A DNA stretch of 64,000 nt from Balanoglossus misakiensis (GCA_040954595.2 CM082587.2:1387500-1451499), one strand, 5' to 3'; counted from the stretch's first letter, positions 19,777 through 36,857 are shown. A program made the numbers and translations. Notes: generated by a model from the letters alone, not told the origin.

Positions 19777-22700
19777 ATGCTGCAACTTCGGTTGCTTGCA
19801 TTAGCTGCCATAATCATATCTGTGTCGTACAACATTAAAGGTAGATACAGTGCAATGGATTTTCAGTTTCATTTTTTGTTCAAATATCTGACGGTCTATT
19901 CTCTGTGAAATCACTTTGGCCACACCTATTTAATCAAAAAATGCACGAAGTGCAAATGTAAAGAAATCGCAAACAAATAAACGAGTTTAATTGCTTTAAA
20001 TTATTTCTCCTGAATCCTGTATCAAAATATTAATTTTAAAGGTAATGAAGTGCCAAGCAACGACCATCTAGACAGTTTATACTTCTTCATCGTCGATGCC
20101 AAACCTTGGACACAAGCTAATTATCACTGCAACAGCATGAACGGTTCTCTCGCCAAGATTCAGAACTACGAGACACAGAAATATCTGGTAGGAATGATAA
20201 AAGCTTATGACTGGGGTGGGGATTTCTACTTCGGACTAAGCGATCAAACGGAGGACGGGGAAATGATGTACCCGGATGGCGAGTTCCCAAGATACACAAA
20301 CTGGTCTTCGCTACCGAAAAATGACTCGGACCGACACCACTGCGCTGCACTGTTGTAAGTAATCAGTACTTGGTGTGATCTGAATGTTCTTCAGGCGGAT
20401 CCTGATGGAGATCCCTTTCAGCCAATCAGGCGCTTCTTCATCGCCAGCTAAAATGAGCGCTAAAATGTAGCAGTTTGTTGTGTTTACTATTACGTTCTCT
20501 TCCTGTTGAATTGCAACTTTTTGGAATTTTCCGCTCGCTCTAGATGTATATAAACGTGCTCTTTTATGTGATTATCCTGTCGGAGTCAGACTCTTAGCGC
20601 GATAGCAACCTTGTTCATCTAAATGCCACGACAATTGCACATGTTTGTATATTCAATTGTAGTGAGGGCGAAGACTATCGATGGATCAGCATGGACTGTG
20701 ATTTCTCGGCTAACTTCATCTGTCAGATCGGTAAGTTACAACCCGGGGTTACAACGGAGATGATTTAAGGTGTACAGAGGGAACTTATCAGTCCAGTTGA
20801 TAAGAAATATCCATGTTTATAACTTTATATTTGAGTAAATTGTAATGAGACCAAGTGAAGTGTACATGGAAGCCAAATGTCATAATCAGATTTCTTTCTG
20901 CAAGATACAATAGGTGTTTGTTTCACATCATCAAGGAACATCACCTGGCAAGCACGCAATATACCAAAAGGTGAATATTTCCAAGTACACGAGAGCTTGC
21001 ATGATACATGACATTTTCTCACACTCTTTCTCTTCCCAGAAAAATGCCCCACATCACACGGTTTCAACGTAACCAAGCGACTGCTTGGTGACATCCCTAA
21101 CTTCGCAGCAGTGAATGTCGGCAAGCAGTTTGAGTGTGACGGGATCATCACAGGGGTCAGATTCTGGGCCAATACCATAGGCATTATACAGTTGGGCATC
21201 TGGAGGATGTCTCAGACACCCAGCGGATCGATTGCTTTCATGATGGTCCATGTATCATCACTACAATCACAGGCGACAGACAGGGAAACCGTTATCGAGC
21301 TTGCCCCCGAGAACTGGGTCCCCGTTCGGCGAGGTGATGTTTTCGGACACTGGTCCACGTCTGGTGGCCTGATGTGGTCGTTTGATCCGATCGAATCGAC
21401 TGACTACTTCCTCCAGCCAGCCACAATACACTCGCTTCAACTTTTCATGCTGGCCACCAGCTCAACTTTCCAAGTACAGAAGAGGGCGTATTCCTTAAAA
21501 GTCGAAGTGAGAGGTAATTTTTTCATGATTTGGTCGATTTATGCATGAAAACACTTCAGGAACACATGTTTAGTATATATATAATCTCTTTCAGGATTCA
21601 CATCTGTAGATTGCGAACCAAACCCTTGTGCCAACGGTGGTACGTGCCTTAAATACTTCCGGGTCAAAGGTGAAAACCTGTGTCAGTGTCCCCCTGACTG
21701 GACCGGAGTCAACTGCGAAATAGGTGAGATCCCTTCGTCAAACTACTAACAGCTTTATTTTTTTCTGAAATGATTTTAATCATTATGCTCGTCGCCAAAG
21801 TAAAATCCTCAATTTTTCTTTAAAAAACTTAAATTTACTTAATAGGCCGAGAAAAATTACCCATTGAGTTCCACCTTGATGATGCCACGTGGTCAGAAGC
21901 GTCCAACGTATGCAAGTTGCGTGGCGGGTCGTTGGCTAAGATTCAGCACCAGGGGATGCAAAACTACATCAGTGCGCGCATCGACAGTTACAACTATACT
22001 GGAGACTTTTGGTTTGATGCAAACGACCGAGAACAAGAGAGAAGGTGGCAGTATACACATGGAGAGGAGATAGAATATTCAAATTGGGCATCCAACCCCA
22101 ACGACGACAAAGGTGTGGAAAACGACTGCGCAGCCTTGAGGTAAGACTGCGATGAACTGTCATCACTTTAATTAAACAATGTTGGCGCTCTTGCTCATGG
22201 GTCCACCTTGCGTCATTTCCCATTTCCAGTTGACACCAGAAAGTGAAGCAAATCTCTCGAATCAATAGTTAACGAGTCTCTCTCATTTCATCACATTTCA
22301 GTCGGAAAGATGGCAATCGGTGGAGAGCTAATGTTTGCGATAAAATATCACCTTTTATATGTTATATAGGTAAGGTATTTTCTATAATAAAACCCAGATA
22401 TCCCTTTGTATGACGTGCATTTTACCAGGTAGATACCATGCAATATTAGCCTTTTCACCCTTTTCGGTAAATCAATAATTGGTGAAATATGAAACCTGTC
22501 TCAGTTATTGTTACTTTTATTTTTTTCTCAAGGAAACGACACTGAAGGTCACTGCTTGAATCCACTTGGTATGGTTTCAAGGGAGATTGGGGATGACCAG
22601 ATCATAGCTTCGAGTAGCTACATCGAAAATTACCCACTTCGTAAAGTAAGCCAACCATACTATGCTCGTCTTGGTGTGAGCGAAGACTTGCTTGGGCGCA

Positions 22701-34700: not shown

Positions 34701-36857
34701 CCTCCAGTCGTTTTTAATAGTGGGAAGAATAATAATAATAATAAAAAACAACACGATTTCAAGAGGGTTTCGAGACCCCTCTGGTCTCGAAACCCTAATA
34801 ACACTTAATTCTCCTCCAATGCCCTCCGAATCCAAATCGACCACTTTGTATAAGAATGGCTAAATGCATAGTTCTGTTATTTACAGGACCTCCGATAGCT
34901 TCATGTTCTGTTGTTTGGTTATGAACAAAGCGGGGACGTGCAATGCGGAACAAGATGAGTTTTCATCTTGCCAGAATCTTGTCAGAGAAGACGTTACTCG
35001 CATACTGATGTGGATCATTGGCTTGGTAGTTGTATTGGGTAATTTTGGAGTGATGATATGGCATCTTCTGGCAAGAAAGCACGACAATTGCACGTCGACA
35101 AGAGTGGGCAATGTCCTTTTCTTCAATCTGGCAGCGGCTGATTTCCTGATGGGTGTTCACGTGATTGGTATTGTCAGCGTTGACATGCTGTACCGCGGCG
35201 AATACTACATGCATCATGAAATCTGGCGCAGAAGTGTCACATGCAACTTCCTCGGTTTCCTGACAACCATGTCCACTGCGATGTCCGTTTTCATCATGAT
35301 CGTTTTGACCGTAGAAAGATTTCTGCGAATTGCGTTTCCAATGTCATACTTTCAGTTAGGCATGAGTGCAACCTATATTGTCGTAGCCATAGCCTGGGTC
35401 TTGGCGGCCTTGATGGGACTGATGCCACTGTCTGGTATGAGTTACTTCGAGGATGCCTTCTACTCCCGCACAGGAGCCTGTGCCCCTCTCCACCTGTCCC
35501 AAACCAAATATCCTGGATGGGAGTACTCCGTTGCCATCTTCTTTGTCCTTCAGCTTGTCGCATTCTCCTTCATATTCACCATCTGCTCATTTACCTACTG
35601 GCGAGCATCTCGACCTGAACCGGCCAAGTCCAACGAATCGCGGGAACGGAAACTAACCGGAAGGGTTGCTTCCATCCTGGCTACCAATTTTTGCTGCTGG
35701 CTGCCGATTGGCACGCTGGAATTCCTGGGCTTGGCATGGTACACGATTCCGGACTCTCTGTACGCGTTGCTTGTGGTGGTCCTCCTGCCCATCAAGTCTG
35801 CGATCAATCCGTTCTTATATGTTCGCGCTAGCATTCGCATCCGGGCAACTGAGAAAAGAATGGGCACAGTGTGGGTTGCAGGCAAAGAAGGGGAAAAACA
35901 AACTGGAACAAGCTCTATTGAAGGTAACTATAACTTTTTATTTTGGCCAAATCCTTGGAGATGTTATACTTATGTTTACATGGTCGCCTTGCTGCTATTT
36001 AAGCTGAAATTATTCGCGAATTTTAACAGATCTTTTGCTTCCATTTTTGAACAAAACCGCCTTCTTACAGTGATGTCCTATGATCATTTTTCAGGGATTT
36101 CTAGCCTCGTCACTAGAATGAATTCACTCATGCAAGAAATACAGCAAGATGGCGGTAAAGAAGGATATGAAGACTTGGAAGTCCTTCGCGGCAAAGTAAT
36201 TGATGCCTTGCAAGTTCTGGACCAGATCATGGAGGAACAGCAAGGAGATGACCCTACTGGGAGAAATGACTTTAGCAAAGCTATGCCACAAGTAAGCAAT
36301 GAAGGAGTAATATGATTATATATACACATGGTGCGGTTTGGTGATTTGGGGTGTGGTGTTATCCATCACATCCCATCACACAACATCGATTTGCATTCAG
36401 TTGCTACCAATAGACCGTTTTCCGAATTCTACATGATCCTGCAGTTTATAGTAGGACATTCTCAAGTAAGGGCAGACAACACGGTCCATCATTTTACACG
36501 GCAAAGTTATAATTTTGTTAATCTCTGCACCTATTTTAGTTTCATACAAAACTTGACGTGTATGTATGTGTTTGGTTAGCAACCCATTGTTAAGGAAATT
36601 ATCCAAGTCTCGCGAGATCTCGCAATGAAGGGGGATAGCATCTATTACCAATAGGGTCTGTGGCCTCAGGAGTGACTTTTTATTTTCATATTCAATGGCA
36701 GGTTGATGGTCTGAATATTGAGATAGACGAAAACGTTCAAGTAGTTGGCCAGAATGTTTCTGGGCGAATGGCAACCGCAGAAGGATCTGATGATGAAGAC
36801 AATGGTGTTGAGAACACAGCCTATGCCATTCATGAGGATGTTATTCCAAATATTTAA
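19777..36857 (+). CDS. Giant GRL101-like (LDLa-LRR, LGR type C) rhodopsin-family GPCR with mosaic ectodomain, about 2,980 aa, 43 coding exons
   Basis: All 43 exons join in phase with GT-AG introns: signal peptide 19777-19840; CTL1 20042-20730; unassigned domain 21040-21513; EGF 21595-21723; CTL2 21846-22369; F5/8C 22533-23258; PAN 23411-23659; three F5/8C 24076-26367; CTL3 26543-26980; cbEGF 27144-27266; three CUB 27370-28999; CTL4 29116-29925; CTL-like 30292-30633; seven LDLa 30829-33037; LRRNT plus 4 LRR 33143-34354; hinge FMFCC..DEFSSC and 7TM 34887-35923 ([23 protein letters not shown]); tail 36095-36291 and 36702-36857. Confidence 0.9.
22533..26367 (+). other. Exons for four F5/8 type C (discoidin) domains and one PAN/apple domain of the giant GPCR
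   Basis: Repeated C..PLG.....I....I.ASS, W/YLQV.L....VTG.VT.G and LR.E.LGC motifs; PAN motif [17 protein letters not shown]. Confidence 0.9.
25222..25380. repeat. Degenerate (CAT/CAC/CGT)n trinucleotide repeat, intronic
   Basis: Directly visible; lies between donor 25197 and acceptor 25426. Confidence 0.92.
30829..33037 (+). other. Seven single-exon LDL-receptor class A modules of the giant GPCR
   Basis: Phase 1-1 exons of 117-141 nt with C..F.C..G.CI....CDG..DC.D.SDE..C; includes the GRL101-type variants [11 protein letters not shown] and [14 protein letters not shown]. Confidence 0.92.
32331..32636. mobile_element. Bipartite palindromic non-autonomous element (possibly Crypton-derived), intronic
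   Basis: Unit 1, 32331-32487, is bounded by a 17-bp inverted repeat (ttataccagtatattga / tcaatatactggcataa). Unit 2, 32494-32636, is a near-perfect 143-bp hairpin (agcaataaaacacccccagccatggtata ... tataccatggctgggggtgttttattgct). Family assignment is inference. Confidence 0.75.
34505..34710. repeat. 21-bp minisatellite (ctccagtcggctccaatgccc)n, intronic
   Basis: About 10 tandem units with no spacers, in the intron before the 7TM exon. Confidence 0.93.
34728..34800. mobile_element. Helitron/Helentron-like terminal fragment: (AAT)n tract plus subterminal hairpin
   Basis: Perfect 14-bp stem agggtttcgagacc-cctct-ggtctcgaaaccct (34764-34796) followed by aataa and preceded by an (AAT)n run. Family assignment is inference. 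Confidence 0.55.

Follow-up and report, generated by a model that had tools for sequence, protein, structure and literature searches.

Type C leucine-rich repeat (LRR) G-protein-coupled receptors (LGRs) carry, by definition, LDLa modules, then LRRs, a hinge and a seven-transmembrane domain (7TM) of the RXFP type (PMC11863921). GRL101 is an orphan receptor in the same paper; elsewhere one GRL101 per ambulacrarian species was counted and IGF was proposed as the GRL101 ligand (10.1101/2021.04.15.440029). LDLa/LRR forms only are described in the available parts of PMC4079206, PMC6267866 and PMC2396169. In RXFP1, the second extracellular loop (ECL2) is a tethered agonist restrained by the LRRs and the hinge; the substitution F564A almost ablated signalling and also abolished the basal activity of the 7TM (10.1101/2022.01.22.477343), W7.36A and F7.40A reduced or abolished activation, and D6.44A (D637A) was constitutively active (10.64898/2026.06.10.731386). 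The gene considered here lies on the plus strand of a 64,000-nt stretch of Balanoglossus misakiensis DNA (GCA_040954595.2, CM082587.2:1387500-1451499; hereafter the window, positions being counted from its first letter) and is predicted to encode one receptor of 2,980 amino acids (aa), in which lectin, discoidin, PAN, EGF and CUB modules precede the LDLa, LRR and 7TM parts. It is taken, with about even confidence, for a single type C2 LGR of an old giant-ectodomain subfamily, which would bind large extracellular partners and whose ligand-gated G-protein switch would have been weakened or rewired in the window copy; the partners are likely to be glycosylated surfaces, mucus or matrix proteins.

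Class and family of the receptor

Pfam scans were made exon by exon and covered 38 of the 43 exons, five short exons being left out. The family 7tm_1 was found in exon 41 (hinge and 7TM, 34887..35923; Pfam, RXFP1 structure match, residue comparison) at 93 bits (cut-off 30.5; E 2.6e-26), and the nearest solved structure to the 7TM was RXFP1 (7tmw, E 2.6e-43). The class A (rhodopsin) placement of the original prediction was thereby supported, and the lineage is that of the type C LGRs: LDLa modules are followed by LRRs, a hinge and an RXFP-like 7TM. [quoted passage not shown] It does not classify as an adhesion G-protein-coupled receptor (GPCR), the exon scans having given 7tm_1, and no GPS/GAIN family was obtained in these general scans.

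The 7TM tree (67 rows, 315 columns; type A/B outgroup absent, backbone open) joined the window gene with row P0157 at 99/96, and the P. flava paralogue P0008 was added at 100/98. All of the nearest relatives were enteropneust, in keeping with a probable acorn-worm origin of the window. Seven GRL101 proteins of the canonical multi-LDLa form (six named GRL101-like, one unnamed from Owenia; P. flava XP_070533608.1 included, Lymnaea GRL101 itself outside the set) formed a separate clade (98/91), and forcing the window gene and P0157 together with XP_070533608.1 was rejected (p-AU 0.004). By its sequence the gene is therefore a type C2 LGR, and orthology to GRL101 was not supported. Forcing the trio of window gene, P0157 and P0008 together with the echinoderm rows was not rejected (p-AU 0.506), which is no proof of a clade; the branches of the window gene and P0157 were long (1.03 and 1.42 vs a median of 0.33). 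Giant relatives (XP_006813017.1, LOC102804127, LOC111619306), Saccoglossus giants near the window gene among them, are filed as GRL101 in Dataset S5 of PMC11863921; CUB, lectin, discoidin and kringle domains are not mentioned in the available text of that paper.

An initial search for longer homologues, reaching only 2,000 aa, gave 6 matches; when the search was directed at long proteins carrying this 7TM, 111 of 2,182 candidates matched, with lengths of 1,521–4,843 aa. Architectures were counted with custom domain profiles after removal of 16 isoform or fragment rows, leaving 258 proteins: the set F5/8C, CUB, C-type lectin (CTL), LDLa and 7TM was held by 58, the set without F5/8C by 86, and 35 relatives had at least 2,500 aa. 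The long relatives come from echinoderms, acorn worms, bivalves, abalone, an annelid, chelicerates, a centipede and sea anemones, and are annotated as 'uncharacterized' nearly throughout. The core order PAN-3xF5/8C-CTL...3xCUB-CTL...LDLa...7TM was found in 18 of the 258, namely the P. flava orthologue (XP_070531726.1) and 17 proteins of 11 echinoderm species, the latter being non-independent samples. The head is variable: echinoderms carry kringles, bivalves and chelicerates ApeC, and anemones MAM; the head CTL-unknown-EGF-CTL-F5/8C was seen in the window gene and P. flava only. The architecture is thus not unique, since 58 of the 258 relatives hold the domain set; none of these was found characterised in the literature. 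No description of the giant architecture was found in the openly searchable literature (subscription journals lay outside the search), nor is it described in the available parts of PMC11521371, PMC13619432, PMC12716839 and PMC4422131; it is already common in databases, yet without description in the literature searched. No tandem paralogue of the receptor was detected by tblastn within the window. In starfish (Patiria, Acanthaster, Asterias) an expansion of LGR-like receptors with alternating CUB/LDLa modules was observed, many of them on shared scaffolds (rows P0217, P0225, P0244, P0246, P0254, P0260 and others).

Switch residues of the window copy and competing readings

Conservation was counted by leave-one-out over 43 highly conserved 7TM columns in 240 rows; the window gene deviated in 8 columns (tied second of all rows), P0157 in 6 and the paralogue P0008 in 0 (median 1). 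Ala at the RXFP1 Phe564 position, His2.56, Ala3.37, Gln5.47, Cys5.58 and Leu7.36 were each seen in 0 of 238 relatives; Val7.40 was seen in 5 of the 238, Lys7.45 in 2 and Asn6.44 in 22. The altered switch codons of exon 41 include those at 35482 (ECL2 Ala), 35584 (5.58 Cys), 35686 (6.44 Asn), 35767 (7.36 Leu), 35779 (7.40 Val) and 35794 (7.45 Lys). Activation of the RXFP1 type depends on an ECL2 tethered agonist of the form C-hydrophobic-P-hydrophobic and on a W7.36/F7.40 relay in TM7; with C-A-P-L in ECL2, Leu7.36 and Val7.40, it is not expected from the sequence. Identity to the P. flava orthologue was 43% in the 7TM vs 61% in the LDLa block; in 17 of 19 other pairs, by contrast, the 7TM had the higher identity of the two, one pair showing equal values and one the lower value for the 7TM. 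Only 6.44, 7.40, 7.45 and a few other changes are common to the window gene and its orthologue. G-protein coupling, which the original prediction had inferred, is doubtful for the window copy because its 7TM is among the most deviant of the 240 rows, with 8 of 43 conserved columns changed.

Three further parts of the window copy appear eroded when compared with the family: the galactose-type lectin motif, a furin consensus and a kinase-remnant tail. QPD is the galactose-type calcium-site motif of C-type lectins, and EPN or QPD plus a WND-type motif is the hallmark of calcium-dependent members. In the core lectin directly before the LDLa run, QPD (45) or QPN (13) and WHD (55) were counted among 79 proteins (10 unparsed, the window gene included), and the QPD/QPN...WHD motif is conserved in most of the family, from spiders to starfish. 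The core lectin of the window gene (CTL4, exons 24–26, 29116..29925; motif comparison with the family) reads QPS...E...WHD. The 'multi-lectin' label given earlier is an overstatement, CTL1–3 of the four CTLs being without a calcium/sugar motif and the CTL4 motif being partly changed; broad lectin activity was not supported.

The furin consensus is R-x-[K/R]-R. It was counted on a fixed 60-residue stretch. In the insert that separates the first LRR strand from the second, it was carried by 15 of the 17 core proteins of echinoderms and by 5 of 8 partial ones (both crinoids included), the background in those ectodomains outside the insert being 0.006–0.010 per 40 aa; it was found in the LRR1 insert of 0 of 9 acorn-worm, 0 of 26 protostome and 0 of 7 GRL101 proteins. 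In the window gene the corresponding basic insert (33411..33446) is about 12 residues long and ends in an RK remnant, and the consensus is absent from the whole ectodomain, so that this copy is not assigned to the furin-cleaved two-chain receptors. The consensus suggests a clipped two-chain receptor akin to adhesion GPCRs in the echinoderm relatives, where the N-cap and first strand would, after a cut in the insert, stay paired with the remaining solenoid, so that two chains would be associated without a covalent bond. Of the first interpretation, the very long adhesion-like ectodomain was borne out; the convergence on an adhesion design proposed at the outset gained unexpected support at the level of the family from the consensus that echinoderm relatives carry in LRR1, a consensus missing in the window gene itself.

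The cytoplasmic tail (exons 42–43, 36095..36857) would retain at most one helix of a kinase-like remnant, as judged by profile comparison. A tail profile seeded on two anemone tails was joined by 107 of 165 tails, and scans of the tails of 17 relatives gave kinase-family matches at E <0.01 in 6, two of them over the Pfam cut-off. The tails of the window gene and P0157 fell outside this profile (E 8.7 and 1.3); comparison of the window tail with it gave one helix of 23 columns (score 18.9 vs at most 14.1 in 30 shuffles, probability 6%). Longer kinase-like tails were noted in the canonical 12-LDLa GRL101 of P. flava (XP_070533608.1, row P0065) and in anemone LGRs (rows P0001, P0081, P0242). These longer tails suggest that a 7TM-kinase fusion is old in type C2 LGRs.

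The favoured reading may be put as follows, by analogy with RXFP1. In the family, the LRRs and hinge would restrain an ECL2 tethered agonist, and the restraint would be lifted once the distal modules (F5/8C, CUB, QPD-type lectin and LDLa) are engaged; in the echinoderm proteins the first LRR would be cut by furin, the ectodomain would be held non-covalently, and its displacement could trigger the 7TM. The window copy would have arisen after a duplication, P. flava retaining a paralogue with a canonical 7TM; it would have gained the CTL-jelly-roll-EGF-CTL-F5/8C head and kept the binding arm. The furin consensus would have been lost, together with one LRR, several transmission residues and the greater part of the kinase-like tail. 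The main role of the copy would then be in binding, adhesion or modulation, with signalling low or independent of ligand.

Several observations weigh against this. The 7TM retains D2.50, C3.25, R3.50, W6.48 (CWxP), P6.50, NPxxY and the hinge Ser/Leu. The P. flava orthologue, altered at other sites, keeps ECL2 Leu, Y2.56, E3.37, N5.47, Y5.58 and W7.36, so most of the window 7TM changes are unshared, and single-base assembly errors may affect individual codons. Asn6.44 occurs in 22 relatives, as counted above, and the constitutive activity of RXFP1 D6.44A points away from silence; the ECL2 site is occupied in most of the family by Leu or Ile instead of Phe, and the RXFP1 results are carried over a distant relationship. 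Monophyly of the giants was not recovered in the unconstrained 7TM tree, which was built without a type A/B outgroup.

A possible, though rather unlikely, alternative is that the receptor senses glycans or surfaces, is gated by ligand and is fully functional in signalling via G proteins, in which case the 7TM changes would retune coupling or ligand response and not weaken it. It would account for an open frame of 8.9 kb with core class A motifs retained, for an orthologue unchanged at most of the sites altered here, and for a galactose-type lectin motif conserved in the family; it has to accommodate six substitutions found in no relative, the ECL2 and 7.36 positions required by RXFP1 among them, and a window lectin motif altered to QPS. 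Constitutive activity, in which the inactive-state lock at 6.44/7.45 would be lost, the 7TM would signal without ligand and the ectodomain would localise or dampen it, is improbable. D6.44 and N7.45 are changed in the window gene (Asn/Lys) and the orthologue (Thr/His) and kept in the paralogue, and RXFP1 D637A is constitutive (10.64898/2026.06.10.731386), but F564A removes the basal activity of the RXFP1 7TM too (10.1101/2022.01.22.477343) and Tyr5.58 is lost in the window gene. Still less probable is a receptor for an insulin/IGF-like peptide hormone with the long arm as an accessory; the type C LGR 7TM and the IGF proposal for GRL101 (10.1101/2021.04.15.440029) speak for it, and against it stand the absence of GRL101 orthology, just four LRRs of which one is interrupted, and the orphan status of GRL101 itself (PMC11863921).

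The coding model was rebuilt from coordinates: 43 exons from the ATG at 19777 to the stop at 36857 (19777..36857; 8,943 nt), a single terminal stop, zero internal stops, 42 of 42 introns GT-AG (median length 169 nt, maximum 605 nt). A hydrophobic stretch is present at N-terminal aa 2–20, and then none until TM1 at about aa 2557. A protein search with the 7TM exon gave 817 proteins at E 1e-30, and P. flava XP_070531726.1/728.1 were among the best 150 of these. The alignment of the model with XP_070531726.1 (2,975 aa) ran from residue 1 to residue 2,980 at 44.6% identity; by exon, identity was 22–79% in 42 of the 43, and in exon 27 (39 nt) it was 0%, length being the only support of that exon. 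The tblastn search matched 38 of 43 exons. The full-length colinearity supports a single gene, and the rebuild together with the end-to-end alignment sustains what had been proposed at first, one signal peptide and 43 in-phase exons without internal stop giving about 2,980 aa. An oyster relative of 2,377 aa, in agreement with oyster RefSeq models, takes up 97% of a 7,353-nt Logan contig and a second relative of 2,734 aa takes up 96% of an 8,534-nt one; such contigs barely exceed the coding sequence and leave hardly any room for introns, which indicates single mRNAs for this design. For the window gene we infer the splicing, and the single-gene model is a predicted one. That it merges separate genes (two or more, one for a secreted lectin/discoidin protein and one for a shorter receptor) is very improbable: the P. 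flava counterpart is likewise a gene model, but long introns, internal stops and a second hydrophobic leader are all absent, the colinearity with P. flava extends from end to end, the core order is identical in 17 proteins of 11 echinoderm species, and relatives lie on mRNA-sized contigs.

Modules of the ectodomain and neighbouring genes

The Pfam order along the gene was CTL, unknown, EGF, CTL, F5/8C, PAN, three F5/8C, CTL, cbEGF, three CUB, CTL, LDLa run, LRRNT, LRRs and 7tm_1, in accordance with the order predicted earlier; LDLa5 (exon 33) was recovered with a custom LDLa profile. No Pfam match at E 0.05 was obtained for exons 4, 25, 26, 28, 33, 37, 40, 42 and 43; in single-exon scans, domains divided between exons often fall under the cut-off. 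The modules (all +) are as follows. Exon 1 (19777..19840; hydrophobic aa 2–20, 57% identity to the P. flava orthologue) encodes a predicted signal peptide; exons 2–3 (20042..20730; Lectin_C, E 5e-13) CTL1; exon 5 (21595..21723; Pfam) an EGF domain; exons 6–7 (21846..22369; Pfam) CTL2, without the canonical motif; exons 8–9 (22533..23258; Pfam and custom profile) the first discoidin (F5/8 type C) domain. The core that echinoderm proteins have in common with this gene begins with the PAN domain of exon 10 and the 27-nt linker exon 11 (23411..23909; PAN_1, E 2e-9), followed by three F5/8 type C domains, all of them interrupted by an intron of phase 0 (exons 12–17, 24067..26367; Pfam and custom profile), CTL3 of exon 18 and the calcium-binding EGF of exon 19 (26543..27266; Pfam), and three CUB domains (exons 20–23, 27370..28999; Pfam and custom profile). 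Beyond CTL4 are exon 27, the 39-nt linker and weakest exon, and exon 28 (30081..30633), the 'CTL-like' label of which reflects a cysteine pattern only; then seven LDLa repeats, one per exon (exons 29–35, 30829..33037; six Pfam matches, the fifth by custom profile), and an LRR N-cap with four LRRs (exons 36–40, 33143..34354; Pfam and comparison with P. flava). The window gene has one LRR fewer than either P. flava relative; as to an overlooked LRR exon in introns 37–40, 6 candidate AG-GT/GC stretches of 69–75 nt were considered, and every one contained a stop.

Exon 4 (21040..21513) encodes an unnamed domain, predicted from homologues and a model as a jelly-roll beta-sandwich of galactose-binding-like type. 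Homologues are present in other acorn-worm giant receptors, and zero were found among 31 candidates in one early search; against PDB sequences no match was better than E 0.02, and Foldseek gave none at E 0.001. A single-sequence fold was uninformative (pLDDT 32.6). The model from six sequences (pLDDT 68; residues 118–151 poor) gave a jelly roll with the Cwp84 lectin-like domain as the best structural match (a modest Z of 9.4, rmsd 3.1, 133 aligned), then a PHR domain (Z 7.5) and CBM32 and discoidin domains (Z about 6). In the Atlas the best matches were unnamed, the nearest named being Lectin_like, PHR and DUF4082 at 0.86–0.88. The modelled likeness of fold demonstrates no function.

Intron phases are 1 (n=28), 2 (n=9) and 0 (n=5; four within F5/8C domains, one in the tail), a pattern that would be expected from exon shuffling. 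Intron 40 holds a 21-nt minisatellite (34505-34710) and intron 14 a trinucleotide array (25219-25366). A candidate polyadenylation hexamer, a consensus match only, lies 83 nt 3' of the stop (36940..36945, +). A single-exon open reading frame of 73 aa (16801-17022, +), 2.7 kb upstream of the receptor, resembles a secreted peptide precursor with a hydrophobic leader, a charged pro-part, a KR site and a four-cysteine mature part; Pfam gave no match below E 0.08, a second copy was absent within the window, and the Atlas similarity to cysteine-rich venom-peptide clusters (at most 0.83) is a lead only. A TRAF gene (37302-39306, -; MATH and TRAF zinc-finger matches) stands tail-to-tail with the receptor, the stops being about 445 nt apart. 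Exon fragments of a GNL1-like GTPase (765-2600, +) were recognised by eye (Pfam only E 0.13), and those of a RasGEF, RalGDS-like gene lie at 53524-57530 (-; RasGEF, E 1e-7).

Comparison with known systems

Type C2 LGRs are orphans generally viewed as LDLa and LRR hormone receptors, and a second widespread design has been hidden under 'uncharacterized protein'. The family offers handles in the galactose-type lectin motif, a furin consensus placed so as to part the arm from the LRR-7TM unit, and the kinase-like tail; the window gene would be a natural case of a copy with the arm kept and the switch changed. If clip-and-release were true, class A receptors would have attained adhesion-GPCR-like activation by their own route. 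A bolder and on the whole unlikely view is that a rhodopsin-class subfamily of acorn worms, echinoderms, molluscs and chelicerates independently built the adhesion-GPCR design, with a glycan/matrix arm that in echinoderms is furin-clipped in the first LRR and held non-covalently, removal or pulling of which would free the ECL2 agonist, and with a kinase-derived inner scaffold; the window gene would then be a duplicated copy that serves this system as a non-signalling decoy or as an adhesion partner.

GRL101 and other type C2 LGRs (Lymnaea stagnalis; orthologues with 11–12 LDLa, e.g., P. flava XP_070533608.1) share with the window gene multiple LDLa modules, a short LRR block, the LGR hinge and the 7TM. 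Canonical GRL101 differs in having 12 LDLa vs seven and in lacking the approximately 2,090 aa of extra modules in front, and it forms a clade of its own without the LRR1 furin consensus (absent in 7 of 7). Of the type C1 receptors (RXFP1/RXFP2, LGR3/LGR4), RXFP1 is the best structure match, and the hinge and the ECL2 cysteine motif align; these receptors differ by one LDLa and a long LRR block, and the equivalents of RXFP1 ECL2 Phe564, W7.36, F7.40, D6.44 and N7.45 are all changed in the window gene. Adhesion GPCRs are alike in the great length of a modular ectodomain, for which CUB, EGF and lectin modules are listed (PMC12716839, Table 1), and in a possible two-chain design, the latter in echinoderm relatives; they differ in that the window gene has 7tm_1 and in that the cut envisaged would be made by furin within an LRR, its consensus missing in the window copy. 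The core order is shared by the uncharacterised giants P. flava XP_070531726.1 and XP_070532232.1, Acanthaster LOC110983669, S. purpuratus LOC762725 and the oyster and chelicerate ApeC-F5/8C-CUB-CTL-LDLa receptors; the echinoderm head has two kringles, the bivalve and chelicerate head has ApeC, and most retain a canonical 7TM and a kinase-like tail, while XP_070531726.1 has the full architecture of the window gene.

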